Position numbers and translations under genes: made by a program. From a virus (lineage: Duplodnaviria; Caudoviricetes), in IMG/VR virus record IMGVR_UViG_3300031565_004587, positions 1 to 28,806 of that record: a DNA stretch of 28,806 bases; one strand, written 5' to 3'. Numbering within the stretch: the first letter of the stretch is position 1; every line of letters starts with the position of its first letter. This document shows positions 2,176 through 28,806 of this stretch, in pieces. The notes beneath the pieces were generated by a model that did no database searches, was not told where the DNA came from, and saw only the letters and a program-made list of their open reading frames with translations.

Positions 2176-2267
2176 TGAAAATAAAAATAACACCGAATTA
2201 TGAATACATTGGTATTCTGATTCTTGGTATATTATATACCTTAATTTCACACTATACAAATGACTGA
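2175..2267 (+). CDS. Possible 30-aa membrane peptide
   Basis: TAATG-coupled ORF MKIKITPNYEYIGILILGILYTLISHYTND that fills the gap before the ligase. Confidence 0.35.
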   Translation: MKIKITPNYEYIGILILGILYTLISHYTND

Positions 2268-3315
2268 AAGTATTGAATTATTCTACCGTGAAGGTAGCTC
2301 AGATAAAGTATATAAAGCAAATATTACAGAAGAGTCTAATGGATTTACTGTAAACTTTGCATACGGTCGTAGGGGTAACGCTCTTACAACCGGTAAGAAA
2401 ACTAATAAGCCTGTTTCATTACATGAGGCTCAGAAGATTTATAATAAGCTGATTCTAGAGAAGACAGCAAAAGGATACATTGAAGATCCACATGGGAAAC
2501 CCTTTACCGGAACAACAACAGAAGCGCGTGATACAGGAATACGCCCTCAACTCTTAAATGAGATAGATGAGAGACTTCTTGAAAAGTATATGACCGATCC
2601 TGAATGGTGTGCTCAAGAGAAATTTGATGGGCGCCGTAGAATGATCTGTATTAAGCCTGAATTAGTAGCTACTAACCGTAAAGGATTAGCTATAACAATG
2701 AGCAAAGAACTAGAATCAGAATTAATGGCAGCGTCTTTTGATGGAAATGTTCTTGATGGAGAAGATATGGGTGATCATATTATGATCTTTGATACAATAT
2801 TCTATCAAGAACCATATCAAACCAGATATCAACATTTAGCTGCACATTTTAGTAGAAACAATCATAAGTTGCTTAAGCTAGTACCTACTGCATGGACGCT
2901 TTCTGAAAAAAGAGCTTTGTATAAGCGCTTAGTAAAGAATAACGCAGAAGGAATCGTATTTAAGAATATCAATGCCTTTTATGTACCAGGAAGACCAAAC
3001 TCAGGAGGAGAACAGTTAAAGTTCAAGTTCGTGGCTACAGCCACTGTACAAGTAATTAAGACCAATCCTACTAAGCGATCAGTTACCGTAGCTGTATATG
3101 ACCTAAGAGGTAATGTAGTAGAAGTAGGAAACGTGACTGTTTATCCTAATCAACAAGTACCTAATCCGGGAAGCATAGTAGAAGTAAGATACCTTTATTA
3201 TTTCCCAGGTGGATCATTATTCCAACCAGTTCTTTTAGGAGAACGAGATGATATGACCATTGAAGACTGCACTCTTAGTCAATTAAAAGAAAAACGTGAA
3301 TCCATAGAACTATAA
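2260..3315 (+). CDS. WGR-domain / ATP-dependent DNA ligase fusion
   Basis: N-terminal SSDKVY...FAYGRRG...KTAKGY (WGR domain). Ligase motifs I QEKFDG, III LDGE, IIIa IFD, IV EGIVFK and V LKFK. C-terminal OB fold GSIVEVRY...QPV...RDD. Confidence 0.88.
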   Translation: MTESIELFYREGSSDKVYKANITEESNGFTVNFAYGRRGNALTTGKKTNKPVSLHEAQKIYNKLILEKTAKGYIEDPHGKPFTGTTTEARDTGIRPQLLNEIDERLLEKYMTDPEWCAQEKFDGRRRMICIKPELVATNRKGLAITMSKELESELMAASFDGNVLDGEDMGDHIMIFDTIFYQEPYQTRYQHLAAHFSRNNHKLLKLVPTAWTLSEKRALYKRLVKNNAEGIVFKNINAFYVPGRPNSGGEQLKFKFVATATVQVIKTNPTKRSVTVAVYDLRGNVVEVGNVTVYPNQQVPNPGSIVEVRYLYYFPGGSLFQPVLLGERDDMTIEDCTLSQLKEKRESIEL

Positions 3316-12881: not shown

Positions 12882-13310
12882 ATGAGTTGGCTATATAATG
12901 GAAAAGTGTTTTGCCAAGAGGGTATACCCCACGGGGCTGTAGGTTTCATATACAGCATGACAGCTATTATAAATGGAACTTCAGTAGCTTATATTGGTAA
13001 GAAGAACTTTTATGCAAACGTTAAAACAAAACTGAGCAAAAAAGCTATGCCTACTGACAAAAGGCTCAAGAAATACAAACGCGTTACTAAAACATCATAC
13101 CAAGAATACTATAGTAGTAATGATGTACTTAAGAAAGCTCATAAAGACGGAGTTACTATCAGAAGAGAAATCTTAATGATATGCTTCAGTAAAACAGAGT
13201 TAACTTACCAAGAGGTAAAACATCAATTTAAGTACGAGGTATTAGAACATGATATATATCTTAATGGTAATATCCTCGGTAGATTTTATAAACAAAGAAA
13301 TAACACATGA
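12882..13310 (+). CDS. GIY-YIG superfamily nuclease-like protein
   Basis: GFIY...YIGKK, YYSS, REIL..C, E...QF and YLNGNI. Confidence 0.7.
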   Translation: MSWLYNGKVFCQEGIPHGAVGFIYSMTAIINGTSVAYIGKKNFYANVKTKLSKKAMPTDKRLKKYKRVTKTSYQEYYSSNDVLKKAHKDGVTIRREILMICFSKTELTYQEVKHQFKYEVLEHDIYLNGNILGRFYKQRNNT

Positions 13311-13762
13311 CCAGTAATCCAGAAACAATCAAATTAACAGCAGAGACTCACGATAATATCGTAGAGATGATGAACTCAATAGATCTTGAGAATAGAGTAG
13401 TAGCTCTAAACTGTATAGAAAATGTAGATTTTAATGAAAATCTAGTGTATATATTACTCCTTAAGAAACAAGGAGGTGCTAGTTCTAGTGAATGGAGTAC
13501 ACACGCTCCTAATACATCCAAATTACTCAAAGGAATAGGTATTAATCTTGATACCTCTCTTACTTGGAAACAGTATCTAGAGATACTAATTAAAAGAGAT
13601 ACTACACCTGATAAGATTCAATTCTATCTTGATCGGTTTGTAGCAGTAATTCATAAATCAATAACCGCTTTAGGGTATGACTTCATTGAGACCCTCGAAG
13701 TAAAAGTAAAACTAAAGACGAAACATGGTGAACAGAGCGGAACAATTAGCGAAAGCGTCTAA
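13307..13762 (+). CDS. Uncharacterised helical protein, paralogue 1 of 3 around vWA-MoxR
   Basis: Residues 10-52 align without gaps to segments of ORFs 16457 and 16927. Confidence 0.8.
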   Translation: MTSNPETIKLTAETHDNIVEMMNSIDLENRVVALNCIENVDFNENLVYILLLKKQGGASSSEWSTHAPNTSKLLKGIGINLDTSLTWKQYLEILIKRDTTPDKIQFYLDRFVAVIHKSITALGYDFIETLEVKVKLKTKHGEQSGTISESV

Positions 13763-14936
13763 AGACTTAATGCTGAAGGAACCATTCTATGGAATGTTCC
13801 TGATAATGCTTAACAAAACATGGGATAATAAAAAAGTCTCAACAGCAGGTGTAGGTAGAAATGGTATTAACTATAATCTCTTTTTAAACGAGACTTTCTG
13901 GGATATTCTCCAAGAACGTCAGAAAAGAGGATTGTTAAAGCATGAACTATTACACATTGCATTCATGCACTTAACTGACTTTGCTCATTTAAGCGATCAT
14001 ACTTTAGCTAATATCGCACAAGATATTGAGATAAATCAGTATATCGAATTAGATGATTTACCACCAGGCCCTCAACTCATATCAACGTATCCTGAACTAA
14101 ACCTTGAGCCTAAGAAAGGTAGTAATTATTACTATGAAAAGCTACAACAGGGTAAGAAAGCAGGTAACTGTCCTAATCTTAATGCAATGATCGCAGCTGC
14201 AGAAGCCGGTCAACAAATATGCATTACAGCAGGGTCAGGTGGGGATCAAGAAACACAAGTTCCTGATCACACTACTCATGAAGAGTTTGCAGGATTAGAT
14301 GAGGCTAGTCAACGACTTCTTAAAGCTCAAACCGAGCATTTAATTAAAGAAGTAGCTGATTCAGTATCTAAATCGCGTGGACTTATTCCTGGTGAATTTC
14401 AATCTATATTAGATCGGATTAATACCACTGAGCCAGCCAAGTTCGATTGGAAAGGATATCTCAGAAGATTCACAGGAGGCTCTCAGAAGGTTTATACCAA
14501 AAAGACAAGGCGGAAGTTCAATAAAAGATATGAAGACAACCCAGGGCTTAAAATCAAGCCTAAGAGACATATCTTAGTTGGTGTAGATACATCAGGTTCT
14601 GTAAATGCAGGAGAACTTAAGGAATTTTTCCATGAGATCCATCATATGTATAAATCCGGTTCTGATGTAACCGTTGTTCAGTGTGATGCTGCTATTCACG
14701 ATGTAAGCCCTTATAACCCTAAACATGAGATAAAACTTCATGGTAGAGGAGGTACAGAGTTTCAACCGGTAATAGATTATTACAATGAACACAAACACAA
14801 ATTCACTTGTCTTGTATATTTTACAGATGGTGAATGCGGTGCACCCGATAATGCACGAGGAAGTATTTTATGGGTATTATCAAGTACCTCACAAGAAAAC
14901 AACGATCTACCAGGATCAGTAATCAAATTAAACTAA
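13725..14936 (+). CDS. Metallopeptidase-vWA protein (DUF2201-like)
   Basis: EPFYG, TAGV, KHELLH (HEXXH), NIAQDIEINQ. The vWA part has VDTSGS (MIDAS), GRGGTEF and YFTDG. Confidence 0.9.
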   Translation: MVNRAEQLAKASKDLMLKEPFYGMFLIMLNKTWDNKKVSTAGVGRNGINYNLFLNETFWDILQERQKRGLLKHELLHIAFMHLTDFAHLSDHTLANIAQDIEINQYIELDDLPPGPQLISTYPELNLEPKKGSNYYYEKLQQGKKAGNCPNLNAMIAAAEAGQQICITAGSGGDQETQVPDHTTHEEFAGLDEASQRLLKAQTEHLIKEVADSVSKSRGLIPGEFQSILDRINTTEPAKFDWKGYLRRFTGGSQKVYTKKTRRKFNKRYEDNPGLKIKPKRHILVGVDTSGSVNAGELKEFFHEIHHMYKSGSDVTVVQCDAAIHDVSPYNPKHEIKLHGRGGTEFQPVIDYYNEHKHKFTCLVYFTDGECGAPDNARGSILWVLSSTSQENNDLPGSVIKLN

Positions 14937-16456
14937 TGGCAAAAGCAGAAGCAAAACAAGTAAACTTAAATATTGAGGAGTTAAAGACATTCTTAACTCA
15001 TATTGTAACTAATAACAGATACCTACAAGAGTCGGGGAAAACACCAGCAGCGGTTGAAATCCAAGGTGATTCAGGTATTGGGAAGACTAGCGGTGTATTA
15101 CAGTTAGCAAATGAATTAAAGTTAAACTTCGTAAAGTTAAACTTAGCTCAGATTGAAGAGTTAGGAGATCTAGTAGGATTTCCGGTAAGACAGTTTCAAT
15201 TATGTAAACCAGAAGGTATAATAACAACTCCTGTAATTGATGTAGCTCCTGCTATTCCTACCATGATCAAAGTAAAGAAAATGGTAAAAAAGATAGTTAA
15301 CCAAGAGGTTACTGTCATGGAAGAACAAGAGGTAGAAGATTTTACAATAACTATTACCAAAAAGCAAGTTCTTGAGGCTGGAAAGTTCATTACTAAAGAT
15401 ATTGAGACTAAAACTCCTATCAAGGTAAAGAAAGAGGTTCCTGTACAAAAGATGATGGATGTAGAGATTGAAGAGGAGGAAGAAGTAGAAGTAGAGAGCT
15501 CAACACCTGTAAAACAAGCTGTTCAAGCTGGTATAGTTAATAGTGCAGAATGCCTTTGGGTAGATGAACAAGCTATTGATGAATATACCAAACAAGGGTA
15601 TTCATTCACCGGCTTAAAACGTATGTCTTATTGTCCACCAGAATGGATTGCTGATAAACAAGGAGGAGGAATTCTAATCTTAGATGACTGGAATCGTGCT
15701 GACATCCGATTTATTCAAGCCGTAATGGAATTGGTAGATCGTCAGGAGTATATCTCTTGGAAGTTACCTAAGGACTGGCATATCATGTTAACTGCAAATC
15801 CAGACAATGGAGAGTATTTAGTTAACAGTATTGATAATGCACAAAGAACTCGTTTCATCAGTGTCAACTTAAAGAGTGACGTTGATGTATGGGCTAAATG
15901 GGCAGAAGTCCAGGGTATTGATGGTCGTTGTATCAACTTCTTATTAATGCATCCTGAATTGGTGACTAACAATATCAATCCAAGAAGTATCACCACATTC
16001 TTTAATGCAATCAGTTCTATTAAGGATTTCGCAGCAGAGTTACCATTGATCCAGATGATTGGCGAAGGTAGTGTAGGGCCTGAGTTCTCTCAGATGTTCG
16101 TACTATTTATCAATAATCGTATGGATAAGTTGATAACCCCTAAGGATATCTTATTACATGATAACGAAAGTCATGTATTAGGAGAAATGAGGAAAGCTAT
16201 TGGTACCGATAACGATTATCGCGCTGATATAGCAAGCATTCTTACAACCAGGGTAATTAACTATGGTTTACACTATGCAGAATCAAACACGATCTACCAA
16301 AAGACTGTAGATAGATTAATAACACTAGCGACTCATCCGGATACATTAACTGATGATCTTAAGTATATTCTTGTTAAGAAGTTCTTAAACGGGAATAAGC
16401 AAAAGTTTCAAAAGATGATGATTAATCCAGACGTTGTTAAAATGTCAATGAAGTAA
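14936..16456 (+). CDS. MoxR-type AAA+ ATPase with large insertion
   Basis: Walker A GDSGIGKT, DLVGFP, PPEW, Walker B ILILDDWNRA, TANP, DNAQRTRF and NPRS. Start at the TAATG overlap, 14936. Confidence 0.9.
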   Translation: MAKAEAKQVNLNIEELKTFLTHIVTNNRYLQESGKTPAAVEIQGDSGIGKTSGVLQLANELKLNFVKLNLAQIEELGDLVGFPVRQFQLCKPEGIITTPVIDVAPAIPTMIKVKKMVKKIVNQEVTVMEEQEVEDFTITITKKQVLEAGKFITKDIETKTPIKVKKEVPVQKMMDVEIEEEEEVEVESSTPVKQAVQAGIVNSAECLWVDEQAIDEYTKQGYSFTGLKRMSYCPPEWIADKQGGGILILDDWNRADIRFIQAVMELVDRQEYISWKLPKDWHIMLTANPDNGEYLVNSIDNAQRTRFISVNLKSDVDVWAKWAEVQGIDGRCINFLLMHPELVTNNINPRSITTFFNAISSIKDFAAELPLIQMIGEGSVGPEFSQMFVLFINNRMDKLITPKDILLHDNESHVLGEMRKAIGTDNDYRADIASILTTRVINYGLHYAESNTIYQKTVDRLITLATHPDTLTDDLKYILVKKFLNGNKQKFQKMMINPDVVKMSMK

Positions 16457-16930
16457 ATGACGGAAGAAGTAATCACTAAGACGGTGCCCGGTAAACTGGG
16501 TACCGTTCTTACTGAACCTGAATATGACACTCTTAATGCAATGCTATCTAGCAGGGATGAAGGGGATCATAGAATGGCTCAGGCAATATTAAATCAATGT
16601 GATATAAAAACATCCATTTATTGGATATGGAAATTAGCAAGAACCCATTCTCATAAGATGGTATATCTTCGTACTAAAGCAAGTAGAGAATTTAGAGATG
16701 CTACTGATTTATTTTCGCTCGGTTATATGAAGTATACCCCATTTGCTTTAGCAATGCATGAAAAAGGATGGCTTACACCAGAAATATATGCAAGAATCAA
16801 ACCTGGTATTTTAGACGAGCTTATTGAAAGAAATAAAAATAATAATGTTTATAACATTCATGTAACAATCAAAGACGCGTTCTTAAACTATGATCAAGAC
16901 GACCAACTCTTACAATTAACCAACTTATGA
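16457..16930 (+). CDS. Uncharacterised helical protein, paralogue 2 of 3
   Basis: LTEPEYDTLNAMLSSRDEGDHRMAQAILNQCDIKTSIYWIWKL; starts immediately after the ATPase stop. Confidence 0.8.
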   Translation: MTEEVITKTVPGKLGTVLTEPEYDTLNAMLSSRDEGDHRMAQAILNQCDIKTSIYWIWKLARTHSHKMVYLRTKASREFRDATDLFSLGYMKYTPFALAMHEKGWLTPEIYARIKPGILDELIERNKNNNVYNIHVTIKDAFLNYDQDDQLLQLTNL

Positions 16931-18036
16931 AAGACTCCATTCATTCACTAGTTCTTACCGAAATGGATACTAAGACTAGAATTATAAAATATGAACACAT
17001 CTGGGTAATTCCAGGTTCTGTTCAAAATCTATCAAATACTGTAATTAAAGGGAATACCTACACCCCTACAAAAGGAGATCGTATCTGGTTTTATCCAGGA
17101 TGCGATGTTCCTAGATTTAAAGTAAAACAGTTCTGTGTGAAAAATGATATAGCTGTTGTAAAATATGCAGATAAAGCCAATGTAAAATTCATTGGCCCAG
17201 AAACACTCAAGGGAATAATCGATAGTCAGTATATATACAATGTACCAAAAGTAGATTTTCTTAAATGGTTTGATACCATAATGTGTAATGCTTATATAGA
17301 AATAAGAGAATTGATTGTAAACTCTCCTAACGAGGTTATATATTTAGAGTACGATACTCGTGAGTATTTTACAGAAAAAGAGTTTTTTGGTAAAAATATA
17401 TTAGACACTGATCTTATTGATCATAATAATATACTATACAGTACTGAAGAAAATCATGAAAAATTATTAGTACTCCAACAAGATCCTAAAATAAAATCAC
17501 AAGATGATATCTTAAGCTTGTTGAACACTGGTATCATATTAGATGAACAGATGTATAACGATGTTCACAGATTGTTCGAAAGTTCTGATAAAGAGAATAC
17601 AAAAGTGGCTATGGAAGCCATGGCGAATTGTGATTTTCAAAAATCTGCTGTATATTTGCTGCTCTTAATGAAAGAATACGGTCAGAAGATCTCAGACTCT
17701 GGAAATAAACATCATGTTAACTTCAAGTCTCTGATTAAATATTTTAAGATTACTAATCTCGAAAATATGACAGTAGATAATATGATCAATTCATTAAGAG
17801 GTCAAAAACTATTAAGTGTAGATAATCTTAACAGGCTAATGCCCTTAGCCATGAAGAGAATTAGAGAAAAAGGAGATATGAACAACATCAAAATCAAAGA
17901 TGTTGAACTATCTGAAGAAGCGGAGTTAAGTGTTGCTGAGAATATATTAGATCAGCAAATCCCTATCCCTTCTGTTCCTGTACCGGAAACGCTAGAACAC
18001 AACACTCTTTTTACAGATGTAAAAGAACCTTTTTAA
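16927..18036 (+). CDS. Uncharacterised protein: possible BRCT-like N-domain plus paralogue 3 helical domain
   Basis: LDEQMYNDVHRLFESSDKENTKVAMEAMANCDFQKSAVYLLLL at residues 205-247; ATGA-coupled. Confidence 0.8.
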   Translation: MKDSIHSLVLTEMDTKTRIIKYEHIWVIPGSVQNLSNTVIKGNTYTPTKGDRIWFYPGCDVPRFKVKQFCVKNDIAVVKYADKANVKFIGPETLKGIIDSQYIYNVPKVDFLKWFDTIMCNAYIEIRELIVNSPNEVIYLEYDTREYFTEKEFFGKNILDTDLIDHNNILYSTEENHEKLLVLQQDPKIKSQDDILSLLNTGIILDEQMYNDVHRLFESSDKENTKVAMEAMANCDFQKSAVYLLLLMKEYGQKISDSGNKHHVNFKSLIKYFKITNLENMTVDNMINSLRGQKLLSVDNLNRLMPLAMKRIREKGDMNNIKIKDVELSEEAELSVAENILDQQIPIPSVPVPETLEHNTLFTDVKEPF

Positions 18037-23948: not shown

Positions 23949-23976
23949 AGGCATCCTTCGGGGTGCCTTTTTTTTT
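23949..23976 (+). terminator. Rho-independent terminator with cUUCGg tetraloop at the convergence of the two genome arms
   Basis: AGGCATCC-TTCG-GGGTGCCT followed by T8. Confidence 0.88.
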
Positions 23977-24652
23977 ATTTTACCGCTTCATAGAGGTTAT
24001 TAACTACACACTCGTGAATGACTTGCATTGTTAGAAGATCATCAGTAAACTTAATACCTGCTTCACTATCATTCCTACAACGATATGCATGCCCTGGTGT
24101 AATTACTTTAGAAGGATGGTATGACTGGATAGTTAAAGAAGTATCCCATGGGAACTTATCTTTAAGAATCATTCCTATATGAACATCCTCTACTCCTGAT
24201 CTTAGTGTAGTATTGCTTTTAAAATCCTTAACCAAATATTGTACAACATCACGAGATAATGCCATACCTTCTCCCCATAAAAAAGGAGCTGTTTTAGCAT
24301 AAGTAGTTTGATAGAAGTGACCCCCGTAATAATCTTCTCGAGGTTTATTACGCAGTAGTTCAACTAAGCGCTCTTTATCGATATATGTAGAGTTATCTGT
24401 TTTAAAGATGTAGTCCCACTTGTATTTAAGTAGGGTTTCAAAAGCGATCATGGTCTTATTATAAAAATGACCGTGTAATTCTGGAATATCTACATGAAGC
24501 TTATTACCTATAAGAGCGGTTTTGTAACTTGAATAGTAAAAGATAGTCTCTATCTCCTTAGAGTGATTAGCATCCCAGGTAGTCTGTTGTGCTAAGACTA
24601 GTTCTGGATACCTCTCTAGTTCTGAAGACATGACTAATATCACTACTTTCAT
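23975..24652 (-). CDS. GT-A glycosyltransferase, GT31 (galactosyltransferase/Fringe)-like
   Basis: TTW, KTMIAF, YIFKTDNSTYID, YYGG, FLWGEGMALSRDVV and EDVHIG. Confidence 0.78.
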   Translation of the reverse strand: MKVVILVMSSELERYPELVLAQQTTWDANHSKEIETIFYYSSYKTALIGNKLHVDIPELHGHFYNKTMIAFETLLKYKWDYIFKTDNSTYIDKERLVELLRNKPREDYYGGHFYQTTYAKTAPFLWGEGMALSRDVVQYLVKDFKSNTTLRSGVEDVHIGMILKDKFPWDTSLTIQSYHPSKVITPGHAYRCRNDSEAGIKFTDDLLTMQVIHECVVNNLYEAVK

Positions 24653-27600
24653 TAGAATCTACTCTGCATTGCTGTGAATGACTTACCACCTTTGATAATA
24701 TCTACATCTGAACCAGTTAAGCCGGCTGTTCTAAAGATATGATTCCAGATCTTAGCAGAACCTTTTTGTTGCCAAGGATATGGACCTGTTGTTCTCTTAT
24801 AGAATAATGATTCATCATCACCTGGCGCCGCATGCATTGCAATGTCTGTTAGTAATTGCGCGTACGTAGTAATAGTTGGGCCAAATGCTACAGAAGTTAC
24901 AGTAGACATTCTAGTATAATCATTTAATCCAAACCCCGGTAAAGGGATAAAGGTCTCATTCTCATTAGAAGTCTTTAATAACATTACCAGTAAATGATTG
25001 GCCAAGAAACCATCTAAGTGGAAATTTTCATCCCCAATTGCACCACTTCTAGCTTTCATTTTATTCCATCTGTCTGGATCATCGTCATCGTATCCAAACA
25101 TTAATGAAGTGATTGCAGAAATGATCAAGATAGTACTTACTTCAGTCAGTAGCTTTTTCATAGCGGCTTTCTCAGTAGGCTCCATCATATTAATATAGTG
25201 ACCATACGATCCTATAATCTTACTAATACTCTTAATTGACTCAATATAAAAGCCAGTTGTAACATCATTAGTGATTATACTACCACGTTGCTTCGCGAAG
25301 CGTGCCATGAACATGGAAGTAAAATACCTACGCATGAACATTACTAACCTGTATGTAAAATGTGCTTGAGCCTGAGGAGATTCGAAGTTAGCGAACGCAC
25401 CATTCAAATGCTTAGATTGTTCGTGGATCAAGTTCTTAAAATCAAGATACTTTCTTCCGCCTACTTCATACTCTCTATCAACGATATCTTTATTCAAAAC
25501 CATTAACTTACTTACGGGATCGATTTCAAAGGCCTCCATGTAAGGAACCTCAACAATCTTACCATTCACATTCTTCTCAACTTTCTTATGAATCATCATT
25601 CCTCCAAATAATTGGAAGGCTGCTTCAAGTTCCATAAACTTTCTAGGACTGTACATCCAAGATAAACTGGCAATATCACCCTCTTTACTACGACTAGCGT
25701 GACTTCCAAAAACCTCAGATAACTTACCTTGTAACGGATCAAAGAACATAAGCATTTGATTGTTCAAAGTATAATTATCTCCACCGTAGATATGATTCAT
25801 CCAATCTTTTTGTGCGCTGATTGACCAAACCTTAGCCTTCAGGTAAGATCCTGGAGACATATGTTCACCGGCCGCTGCTAACATTCTCATCTGCCATAGT
25901 GCACCCCAATAGTTCTTGGTTGCTGACGGTAGATTTAAAGCAAAGTAGCTAAAGGAGGCGCCTTTCATTAATTTACCGGTAATCTTATTTAAAAAATCTA
26001 AGTGACGTTCGCTATAGATTTTTCCTTTGAACTCACGGTTATATAAAGCATTCATTCCTGAGGCTCTTATATTCTCTTGTACTTCATTGTCTTTTTTACT
26101 AAAGATCTTTCTCTTAATAGAATTACCATTAGCCATATCTATACCATCTTTCTTGATCTTATTTTTAGGATTGTTCACCGTATTAAGGATAGCCTTGGCT
26201 ATGTGATTAATCTTAGTAAACTGTCTCTGCTTTTCAGCACTCAGTCCATATACATTAAGCACGCGTAATACATCTCGGGATGTTTCTTCAAGTTCCATAT
26301 TAGCAGTACCACTCACAGGAAGTCTATCTATTACAGAACCTTCACTGATAGAGTTCATAAAATCTATAGAATGTAAAGTCTCATCCATAGCAGCATCACC
26401 AGTTCCTTCTTCGAAATCACCGGCTTCACGCGTAAGAGCATTCACTTCTTCACGAGAAGCACCTTTAGCAAAAGCAGTAACCCCTTCTTTTAATTTTTTA
26501 AGTGTTTTGACTTTTTCACCTACTAATCTACCAGATTGTATTTGCTCTAAAGTATCATTTCTCTGACTTCCAATTCTCATTCTAGGAAGATCAAGATATA
26601 ACCTGCTCTTGTAATCGATTTCTTTTTGATTTGCAAGGTGATATTCTTTAAGATATTGTAATAACTCAGCATGCTTAGGGCTTGTTTGTTGAAGTTTATA
26701 ATAAGCCTCATTAATATACTCACTATCGATTACTTTTCCTGTAATATCTCTAGCGGGTTTTTTAGCATAATCTTCTTTATTCTTAGGTAAAAAATTACCT
26801 TTATTATCAATCCTTACACCAAGATATAACTTATTCCTTTCTTCCACATCCATCCCATACGGTATAGTACGGTACTGATCTCGTACCACTCTAGTCTTAT
26901 ACTTCATTGACGGAGTTCTACCAGTCATTGTTTTCTCTTCTACTTCTCCTGTTGTAGGATTAGTTACCTGATACTTAAAAGTTGCAAGATGACTTAATAA
27001 TTTAGGGCTCGGGGCACTCCACGCGCTTAATCGTTGGTAATTGTGAACTAAGTCTCCATCATTATTAACGTATTCTCTTCTTACATGATTAGCCATGAAC
27101 CATTTTTCAAACTCAGGACTTCTAGCCATAATTTTATCTGCAGGTACTTCCCTTTTATCTCCAATACCTTTTCCTCTAATAAAATCAGCTGCAGTAGATG
27201 CTGTTAACTTAGCATAAGGAACACCTTTGATATCATCCAGTAGATTATTAACTTGATCGATATAATGAGTTGTAGCTTCTTTTCCACGTAACTGAGCTAA
27301 CATATCAAAGATCTCAGCTCGTTCCTCACGCATTTCTACACTTAATGTAGAAAGAACTCCAGATTTTTTGATAGCTTCTTCTTTAACAATCAAAGCTTCC
27401 TGAACTCTCTTCAACTCAATCATTTTCTTTTCAGGAACTATAGAACCATCCGGTTGACCTAAGGCGTCTTTATATCCCATAACTAAACTACCCATAGCAG
27501 TAAACTCTTCAGATACATCTAGCTTCTGCTTTACTCCAGCTGGTAAATTTGCCATCCATGTATCAAGTCTTAGGAATGTTTTAGCAACATCGTTCCAATA

Positions 27601-28806
27601 CTCTTCTGTGTATCCAGGAACTGTATTCTGTTCTATCCATTTATCAATAGTGGTTTTGTATTCATCACTAGTTCTAGATAATCCTTTATTATTAATAAGA
27701 TCATCTTCAAACGCACTTAATGCACTATTAAACGCTTCTTTCTTATCAACGTATTTATAATATTTGGATGTTCTTCTTCTATGGGCATTCAAAGCCTCAG
27801 CTTTAAGTAGATCATCGCCCGTTTTCATGGTACCATTGGCATTATGGATGGAGTAAAGCTGGGCATATTCCTTCCATCGCTCGGCCATGTTATCCGCCTC
27901 TTCAAAATTCTCATATTCAGAGAACATTAGATTAGCTTCTGCACTAATCTTAGCCAGAACTTCATTTCTTTCCAACCAAGCAGCTAATCCAATATCAGTC
28001 TTTAGTAACTCATCCTGTGCTTCATACACTTCTTTATCATAATCCTGCCACCAGAAATTGGTCTTCTCAGTAGATAATGCTTTATACGCTGTACGTAATA
28101 CTTCCTTAGCAGCTTTGATTTCCTGATCTGTTATAGCGTTAGTAACACCAGTTTTAGCTTCCTCGATCTTAACTTCAAGCTCTTTTATCTTCCATCGTCC
28201 ACTGATAGTCGGGGCTATAAAGGAAAGAACCTTTTTCTCAACAAATACACCATCTTTTTTCTCAAAAGTACTATCTTGAGATAAAGCAAAATCCCAAGTC
28301 TTCTCAAGATTTGTTCCTGTAATATCAAGCTCCTTAAGTAATGGTGATATCTTAGCCATAAAAGCCATTTCATTTCTAATAGCTTCTGCCTCAATATTAG
28401 AGATTGTATCTTTAATGAACTTAGCAAAACCACCTACAATAGGATCCGGATTAGTAGTATAAGATTCAAACATAGTTGACCACCAACTGGCGTCTCCTAT
28501 TTTACCTTGAAGCATATCTCTAACTTTATCCTTACTTAAATAAAACTTTTGATGTTTATCTGTAGCTGCCTTTAAAGCCTTTACTGCAGTTGCTTTCTTT
28601 ACCCCTGAAGAATTTGCTATAATACCCTCAAGTTCTTTTTTTCTAGCATTAAATTCGGTATCCCTTTTTTTATTGGATTCCTTTACCCATTCGTTATAAA
28701 TATTAACAGTACCCTCTTCTTGAATCTCTCCATACAATTCAAGACCAGTCTCGATATTATCACCCAGGTTGGCCATGAACTTCTTCATAGTACTATCCTG
28801 AGGGAT
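24652..28806 (-). CDS. Very large virion/ejection-type protein, 5'-truncated (>1380 aa)
   Basis: Frame is open to the window edge (IPQDST before M at 28788). Mostly helical with C-terminal hydrophobic segments (EVSTILIISAITSLMFG), resembling the giant internal proteins of crAss-like podoviruses. Confidence 0.65.
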   Translation of the reverse strand: MPQDSTMKKFMANLGDNIETGLELYGEIQEEGTVNIYNEWVKESNKKRDTEFNARKKELEGIIANSSGVKKATAVKALKAATDKHQKFYLSKDKVRDMLQGKIGDASWWSTMFESYTTNPDPIVGGFAKFIKDTISNIEAEAIRNEMAFMAKISPLLKELDITGTNLEKTWDFALSQDSTFEKKDGVFVEKKVLSFIAPTISGRWKIKELEVKIEEAKTGVTNAITDQEIKAAKEVLRTAYKALSTEKTNFWWQDYDKEVYEAQDELLKTDIGLAAWLERNEVLAKISAEANLMFSEYENFEEADNMAERWKEYAQLYSIHNANGTMKTGDDLLKAEALNAHRRRTSKYYKYVDKKEAFNSALSAFEDDLINNKGLSRTSDEYKTTIDKWIEQNTVPGYTEEYWNDVAKTFLRLDTWMANLPAGVKQKLDVSEEFTAMGSLVMGYKDALGQPDGSIVPEKKMIELKRVQEALIVKEEAIKKSGVLSTLSVEMREERAEIFDMLAQLRGKEATTHYIDQVNNLLDDIKGVPYAKLTASTAADFIRGKGIGDKREVPADKIMARSPEFEKWFMANHVRREYVNNDGDLVHNYQRLSAWSAPSPKLLSHLATFKYQVTNPTTGEVEEKTMTGRTPSMKYKTRVVRDQYRTIPYGMDVEERNKLYLGVRIDNKGNFLPKNKEDYAKKPARDITGKVIDSEYINEAYYKLQQTSPKHAELLQYLKEYHLANQKEIDYKSRLYLDLPRMRIGSQRNDTLEQIQSGRLVGEKVKTLKKLKEGVTAFAKGASREEVNALTREAGDFEEGTGDAAMDETLHSIDFMNSISEGSVIDRLPVSGTANMELEETSRDVLRVLNVYGLSAEKQRQFTKINHIAKAILNTVNNPKNKIKKDGIDMANGNSIKRKIFSKKDNEVQENIRASGMNALYNREFKGKIYSERHLDFLNKITGKLMKGASFSYFALNLPSATKNYWGALWQMRMLAAAGEHMSPGSYLKAKVWSISAQKDWMNHIYGGDNYTLNNQMLMFFDPLQGKLSEVFGSHASRSKEGDIASLSWMYSPRKFMELEAAFQLFGGMMIHKKVEKNVNGKIVEVPYMEAFEIDPVSKLMVLNKDIVDREYEVGGRKYLDFKNLIHEQSKHLNGAFANFESPQAQAHFTYRLVMFMRRYFTSMFMARFAKQRGSIITNDVTTGFYIESIKSISKIIGSYGHYINMMEPTEKAAMKKLLTEVSTILIISAITSLMFGYDDDDPDRWNKMKARSGAIGDENFHLDGFLANHLLVMLLKTSNENETFIPLPGFGLNDYTRMSTVTSVAFGPTITTYAQLLTDIAMHAAPGDDESLFYKRTTGPYPWQQKGSAKIWNHIFRTAGLTGSDVDIIKGGKSFTAMQSRF

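Follow-up and report, generated by a model that had tools for sequence, protein, structure and literature searches.

Members of the MoxR clade of AAA+ ATPases are defined by a β-hairpin insert in helix 2, termed H2i (PMC7159879, PMC13036017). The best comparisons for the protein described here are NorQ (9qh8/9qh4) and CbbQ (5c3c), which belong to the same fold class, have the same insertion site and have an adjoining vWA partner with a MIDAS motif. The H2i of NorQ is described as a short hairpin that lines a 15 Å pore and grips a finger of the vWA protein (PMC13036017). Among phages, the ATPase and its partner belong to PHROG 1297 and PHROG 1314, and the same families, arranged as the same gene pair, are present in group 2.2 jumbo phages and as gp24/gp25 of N4. 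The jumbo-phage MoxR/metallopeptidase-vWA pair was proposed to act as a virion-assembly chaperone and peptidase (PMC7824862), and in N4-like phages the pair is listed among core genes with no assigned function (PMC4193335). The accessible text of these two reports describes no insert in the ATPase (PMC7824862, PMC4193335). In RavA, a further member of the clade, the accessible account has the LARA domain binding anionic lipid and LdcI, and not the vWA partner ViaA (PMC9489729). By analogy, LARA may be taken as a precedent for an accessory targeting part on a MoxR ATPase. LARA is a globular domain carried on a C-terminal helical arm, and not a β-ribbon in H2i.

The window analysed here, a 28,806-nucleotide stretch of viral DNA, is a phage replication region containing genes for a ligase, a uracil-DNA glycosylase, a Dda-like helicase, a DnaB helicase, a RecT-like protein, a primase, an exonuclease and a DNA polymerase. 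The context of the ATPase gene is formed by the annealing protein (RecT-like), helicase, primase, exonuclease and polymerase genes, so that the pair, unlike its proposed virion-assembly counterpart in jumbo phages, sits among replication genes. Its immediate surroundings are as follows.

13307..13762, + strand: 151-aa gene without a family match, with a module common to the 157- and 369-aa genes
13725..14936, + strand: partner protein, a zincin-like metallopeptidase (HELLH) fused to a vWA domain with MIDAS motifs (DUF2201_N and DUF2201; PHROG 1314)
14936..16456, + strand: MoxR-type AAA+ ATPase, 506 aa, PHROG 1297 family (profile and homologue searches, AF2, motifs)
16457..16930, + strand: 157-aa gene (short form) without a family match
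16927..18036, + strand: 369-aa gene downstream of the ATPase, without a family match, with homologues in most loci

The start of the ATPase (506 aa) is most likely at 14936 rather than at 14870, because the stop codon of the upstream gene overlaps that ATG and the homologues align from there. The metallopeptidase-vWA gene lies directly 5′ of the ATPase gene, and its DUF2201 domain has the DxSGS, T and D motifs of a vWA MIDAS. The PHROG 1297 and PHROG 1314 profiles match the adjoining genes with E-values of 4.5e-32 and 5.6e-60. Profiles of the 151-, 157- and 369-aa genes cross-match one another.

The ATPase displays the features of the MoxR clade (clade 7), namely the motifs, the H2i, similarity in fold and profile, and the adjoining vWA partner with MIDAS. 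Walker A begins at residue 44, with Walker B at residue 248, sensor 1 at residue 286 and the arginine finger at residue 304, and the key AAA+ motif residues are invariant in 104 homologues. The AAA_5 and AAA_3 profiles each match 26 of 32 arm-less homologues (E up to 0.01). NorQ 9qh8 is the top Foldseek match of the full AF2 model (E 2.5e-7), which also matches phage AAA proteins; in VIA, CbbQ and NorQ (Z 12.3-13.0) are found beside the AAA+ domains of dynein and the clamp loader, at similar Z. When solved structures were searched by sequence, only Midasin was significant, in an alignment ending at the start of the H2i. A hexameric ring, ATPase activity and binding of a vWA finger are presumed for the phage protein from its family.

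The relatives of the ATPase come from uncultured viral contigs, many of ∼120 kb. Cultured phages contributed 13 records matching at 25-34% identity, none of them over the insert. The nearest cellular homologues are from Bacteroidota MAGs (34-43% identity; 13 of 18 loci), and the remaining 5 of the 18 cellular-bin loci look like phage contigs in bins. Saprospiraceae and Raineyaceae MAGs (L324-L336) encode cellular ATPase homologues with a plain H2i; judged by sequence these may hint at a Bacteroidota link, and are not host evidence.

The H2i of the phage ATPase is laid out between Walker A and Walker B as listed here.

15065..15088, + strand: Walker A, residues 44-51 (motif)
15185..15205, + strand: first H2i strand, residues 84-90 (AF2 strand; same place as the plain hairpin of cellular homologues)
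15209..15262, + strand: N-terminal linker, Pro/Ala/Thr-rich, predicted disordered (pLDDT <50 at residues 95-112; linker pN/pS 0.67)
15263..15376, + strand: predicted ribbon, outgoing strand, residues 110-147 (register; AF2 strand 112-147; stalk part also in single-sequence AF2)
15359..15397, + strand: conserved basic/hydrophobic tip with a motif of the KKQVL-E-x-G-KF type (homologue conservation, selection)
15377..15382, + strand: two-residue turn A148-G149 (AF2; xG turns or four-letter G-bulge turns in homologues)
15383..15496, + strand: predicted ribbon, returning strand, residues 150-187, with Pro at two non-H-bonded sites (register; AF2 strand 150-185)
15497..15547, + strand: C-terminal linker, predicted disordered (pLDDT <50 at residues 183-202)
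15551..15631, + strand: phage-specific H2i knob (strand 206-210, helix 211-219) and second H2i strand (223-231) (AF2, homologue comparison)
15671..15691, + strand: Walker B, DD variant, residue 248 (motif)

An initial annotation of this DNA had described a 113-aa insert at 15209-15547, lying between Walker A and Walker B, with a 78-aa core at 15263-15496. Both segments translate as claimed and the placement stands, with the correction that the insert lies in the H2i specifically and is carried there on disordered linkers. The anchors are the AF2 strands 84-90 and 223-231, which follow helix 70-79, and in cellular homologues only a short hairpin is found between the same two anchors (5 of 5 compared). 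Phages add a knob of ∼35 aa to the H2i, and some add the ribbon within the knob. The phage ATPase H2i, unlike that of NorQ, comprises a 35-aa knob and, on flexible linkers, a predicted ribbon that can reach ∼130 aa. The Pro/Ala-rich linkers that had been noted on either side of the core are indeed flexible by prediction (pLDDT <50). No match to the insert was found in Pfam (E up to 0.01) or PHROG. An intein or mobile DNA insertion was rejected on these negative searches, the graded lengths of the insert, the lack of an inverted repeat and the lack of any Rfam match in the window.

The core had been proposed to fold back on itself as a charge-zippered hairpin, and all 14 of the residue pairs named in that proposal lie on i+j=79 (core numbering) in the sequence. 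The charge zipper itself is only part of the pattern. Eight of the 38 core pairs are of opposite charge, two are like-charged (E21-E58 and K34-K45), and seven are hydrophobic, including six V/I-V/I pairs; a Val/Ile ladder fills the other face. Val and Ile are one-faced in this sequence (18/37 vs 3/38; Fisher p 9e-5), and many charges are present on both ribbon faces. The best register score of the core, 13, is shared by i+j=79 and 77 and was reached by 560 of 5000 shuffles; for the whole 113-aa insert the best score, 16, was reached by 35 of 2000. The register from this single sequence is modestly beyond chance and is not compelling alone, and the decisive support for the putative ribbon comes from homologous sequences and from AlphaFold modelling. 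That the symmetry stems from a DNA or RNA hairpin was rejected, with 0 inverted repeats, seven short two-copy direct repeats and a fold z of 0.27.

AF2 run with 104 sequences predicted two strands, residues 112-147 and 150-185, joined by the turn A148-G149 and paired exactly on i+j=79, with pLDDT values of 74-86 in the ribbon and <50 in the linkers. The turn is the one proposed initially (core A39-G40). Two 36-residue strands at 3.3-3.5 Å per residue give a predicted length of ∼12 nm before coiling, in keeping with the 12-13 nm first suggested. With the single sequence of residues 84-232, the stalk strands of the best model (110-133 and 164-187) are of equal length and agree with i+j=79, and its tip forms a short helix (142-147) and not a hairpin; three of the five models reached only ∼40 pLDDT. 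The β stalk is therefore predicted with and without an alignment, whereas the tip hairpin appears only with one. Taking the models and the homologues together, the 78-residue segment is very probably a two-stranded antiparallel β-ribbon.

Homologous inserts range from 7 to 131 aa when length is taken between fixed anchors, a scale on which the insert of the window measures 118. Symmetric change in length on the two strands had been suggested as a check on the fold. The position of the turn was assigned by motif and not by symmetry. Among the 157 distinct inserts of a first set, 118 could be given a turn and 39 were unresolved, and the two arms were within five residues of each other in 114 of the 118, a count that includes seven very short inserts with doubtful turns. 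A pooled set held 262 distinct inserts, of which 129, under 30 aa or of an Ala-rich type, were left out; the turn was found in 132 of the remaining 133, and the arms agreed within five residues in 124 of the 132 (r 0.93, slope 0.92). Of the eight outliers, one comes from a miscalled motif (L113), and two are genuinely asymmetric, with arms of 58/44 (P0011) and 63/50 (P0089). In P0011 one side is 16 residues shorter than in P0002, and in P0089 the N-side is replaced by Pro-rich sequence; both may be intermediates or assembly errors. When the insert was left out of tree building (111 taxa), the contrasts of one arm correlated with those of the other (r 0.90 raw, 0.65 standardised), and 42 of 45 large contrasts had the same sign in both arms, which was matched by 0 of 10000 permutations. 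Indels in the stalk were even in 31 of 37 cases and odd in six (from 76 nearest pairs). The sequence counts among homologues share ancestry and are not independent events.

The pairing pattern was also examined across 98 inserts read outward from the turn. Here i+j=79 shows the highest fraction of opposite-charge pairs (0.137), the lowest of like-charge pairs (0.020) and the highest of V/I-V/I pairs (0.119). Neighbouring registers on the same face come close, and per sequence 79 and 77 tie (best offset in 24.3 vs 24.0 of 98). Mutual information behaves similarly, with z of 1.54 at 79, 1.40 at 77 and 0.16 between them, the top pair being K33-D46. The covariation check suggested for i+j=79 does not separate these two registers, and neither does V/I pairing; AF2 picks 79. 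Even positions carry the V/I pairs, and odd ones most of the salt bridges. The charges at the E23-K56 site occur either way round (0.20 and 0.22), and the charge of a six-residue block is anticorrelated with that of the block facing it (r -0.92, positions 13-18).

By the general rules of β-sheet structure, proline fits only the non-H-bonded sites of a strand, and blocks edge pairing. A two-residue turn fixes which sites of the ribbon these would be. Across 110 stalks, prolines fall on 239 non-H-bonded and only seven H-bonded sites, a bias that persists after weighting at 50% identity (60 vs 3), whereas in the outer 20 residues the counts are 198 vs 103. Val and Ile show the opposite preference (1459 vs 212 on opposite faces; n=110). 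Proline is present in 109 of the 110 stalks. Equal arms, in-phase alternation and prolines at non-H-bonded sites are thus all found in the homologues.

Selection on the insert was estimated from eight locus pairs drawn from 20 long-arm loci. The values of pN/pS were 0.15 for the AAA body, 0.24 for the tip, 0.30 for the stalk and 0.67 for the linkers; on these values purifying selection acts on the stalk. The net charge of the tip is positive in 127 of the 131 inserts and at every arm length, with Q at 92% and K at 91% at tip positions, whereas all other blocks average negative and the rest of the insert becomes more acidic as length grows. The K34:K45 site is like-charged in 87% of weighted sequences. 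By alignment, an uncompensated basic tip is the most conserved charge feature of the insert; the charge is small (∼+2) and could reflect a preference of the turn or of solubility.

The arm is labile. At least 11 changes between long and not-long forms were counted on a fast tree of 157 taxa, whose sampling favours relatives of the query, and short forms are nested among long ones. Among the 157 distinct locus inserts, 77 are of the Ala-rich and 43 of the short type. A separate clade (L022, L026, L032 and about 75 similar loci) has, at the same site, an Ala-rich insert of 35-43 aa that begins and ends in a short Lys-rich strand and may form a helix on a short stalk. Arm-less relatives and unrelated Ala-rich inserts would be as compatible with a site that tolerates insertion as with a functional arm.

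Because the relatives lengthen and shorten both strands together and keep the basic tip, the ribbon may well act as a tether. The reading that we favour, with a confidence somewhat short of an even chance, is of an accessory, likely monomeric arm with a polyanion-binding basic tip. The arm would be accessory because it is labile on the tree and a separate clade carries the Ala-rich insert at the same site, and monomeric because prolines in 109/110 stalks should block edge pairing. A stiff, edge-protected ribbon on flexible hinges would present the basic tip for binding to a polyanion; DNA in the zone of phage replication is the likeliest, with a membrane or an acidic client as alternatives. 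DNA is the putative first target only because of the tip charge and the gene neighbourhood. Six arms of the presumed hexamer would project from the face opposite the vWA-peptidase docking face, and so would point away from a partner that does not vary in length with the arm (rho -0.03, n=62). Through avidity the arms would keep the motor close to its client, and the conserved H2i base would do the remodelling work. Among the functions suggested initially, a capture arm or antenna fits best.

The same observations could be produced by a folded, nearly functionless expansion, in which insertions are tolerated in the H2i knob and selection acts only on their compactness and solubility, which would force them to grow symmetrically and in phase. 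The range of lengths, their lability on the tree, the second, Ala-rich type at the same site and the constancy of vWA length all sit comfortably with this idea, which is harder to reconcile with a tip more constrained than the stalk and basic at all lengths, with the persistence of a K:K pair whose like charges should not add to stability, and with the retention of ∼110 extra residues in many lineages. We consider it unlikely. Disorder has also to be considered, since the composition of the insert (V 18%, E 15%, K 13%, T 9%) and the three low-confidence single-sequence models would suit a PEVK-like segment that folds only on binding and serves as an entropic brush or spring, and single alveolin domains are predicted to be disordered (PMC12465100). 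A coil would not be expected to show arm symmetry, proline parity, even-numbered indels or compensation between facing charges, and such a segment is improbable.

Two further possibilities concern how the six copies would work together. The regular V/I ladder on one face might allow the ribbons to join over the pore as a barrel, needle or cage, or else to link one ring to another, so as to give the client a conduit or chamber; the H2i hairpins of NorQ converge at the pore (PMC13036017), and Val/Pro-rich alveolin repeats are predicted to pair with partners as twisted ribbons (PMC12465100). This assembly is decidedly unlikely given stalks whose prolines would block their edges, linkers predicted to be disordered and faces that are both heavily charged. 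Graded arm lengths also raise the prospect of a molecular ruler setting a distance, for example to a cleavage site of the partner peptidase or to a virion dimension. In beta-type loci two neighbours do lengthen with the arm, the 369-aa gene with rho 0.54 (n=27) and the 151-aa gene with rho 0.45 (n=24), values corrected neither for kinship nor for the 12 tests made. However, the former trend is gone once arm-less loci are added (rho 0.01, n=57), the vWA, exonuclease, primase and 188-aa genes show no trend, arm-less relatives retain the same partners, and flexible 20-residue linkers would blur any measure. No ruler partner emerged from these correlations of neighbour-gene length, so that the ruler in the initial list of functions finds no support there and is most improbable. 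The 157-aa neighbour is of the short form (∼160 aa) in 9 of 12 long-arm loci and in 0 of 45 shorter beta-type or arm-less loci, and in Ala-rich loci it has a form of ∼350 aa in 52 of 53 and is short in one; as the counts ignore kinship, any association of the short gene with long arms is a lead only.

Returning to the arm that tethers through its tip, a fuller and more tentative form of the idea, which we rate as less likely than not, is that the pore-side hairpin of a phage AAA+ motor would have become six self-supporting 12-nm β-ribbon arms, acting as tunable spacers whose basic tips capture DNA, a membrane or a client for the motor-peptidase. If true, the arms would be an all-β counterpart of coiled-coil arms, and the natural length ladder, from 0 to ∼60 residues per side, would show a ribbon growing in paired, even-numbered steps. 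More than 130 natural length variants in one scaffold would offer a test set for the stability and design rules of β-ribbons, and the conserved tip would be a small bait for the target of a widespread, unexplained phage MoxR/peptidase-vWA machine.

The ATPase/peptidase-vWA pair is already known from jumbo and N4-like phages. When the model of the insert was compared with 48,161 PDB chains the best Z was 2.6, which does not prove novelty; to our knowledge, few solved structures contain a long free two-stranded ribbon. Against BFVD nothing was found at E up to 0.001, and the best hit, a potyvirus P1 fragment (E 0.04), was taken as chance. A phmmer search with the ribbon over 1.84 billion representatives gave three matches, all in this ATPase family, and a search with the region from a 129-aa variant gave 10, all already known. 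The ESM Atlas held no usable match for the ribbon, and an NCBIfam search gave nothing useful. When 1917 locus ORFs were ranked by a ribbon score, the top 13 were all this ATPase. No description of the ribbon insert was found in the literature searched; the supplements of PMC7824862 might annotate such inserts. Val/Pro/charge repeats of alveolins (IMCp) are predicted to form twisted β-ribbons, some of them intramolecular (PMC12465100), and the composition is similar to that of the insert, a likeness that we take as analogy only. Alveolins are eukaryotic cytoskeletal filaments, whereas the insert is part of an enzyme. Membership of the alveolin/IMCp family was rejected, there being no Pfam match (E up to 0.01) and no EKIVEVP-type heptad array.

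Some observations were made in passing. Two homologous ATPase genes are interrupted: one is split by a group I intron (L321:1467-1724; Rfam RF00028, 91 bits), and the other, after about residue 74, by ∼1 kb (L137:3731-4775) that has no Rfam match at gathering score and contains a 271-aa GIY-YIG/NUMOD1 endonuclease ORF. Elsewhere in the window, a 1378-aa ORF at 24652-28788 (- strand), without a convincing Pfam, PHROG or NCBIfam match, adjoins a galactosyltransferase-like gene at 23975-24652 (- strand). A 168-aa phage protein encoded at 7495-8001 matches the C-terminal helix-turn-helix of DnaA above the Pfam cut-off (E 9e-10), and the gene at 2260-3315 encodes an ATP-dependent DNA ligase with a WGR domain at its N-terminus.
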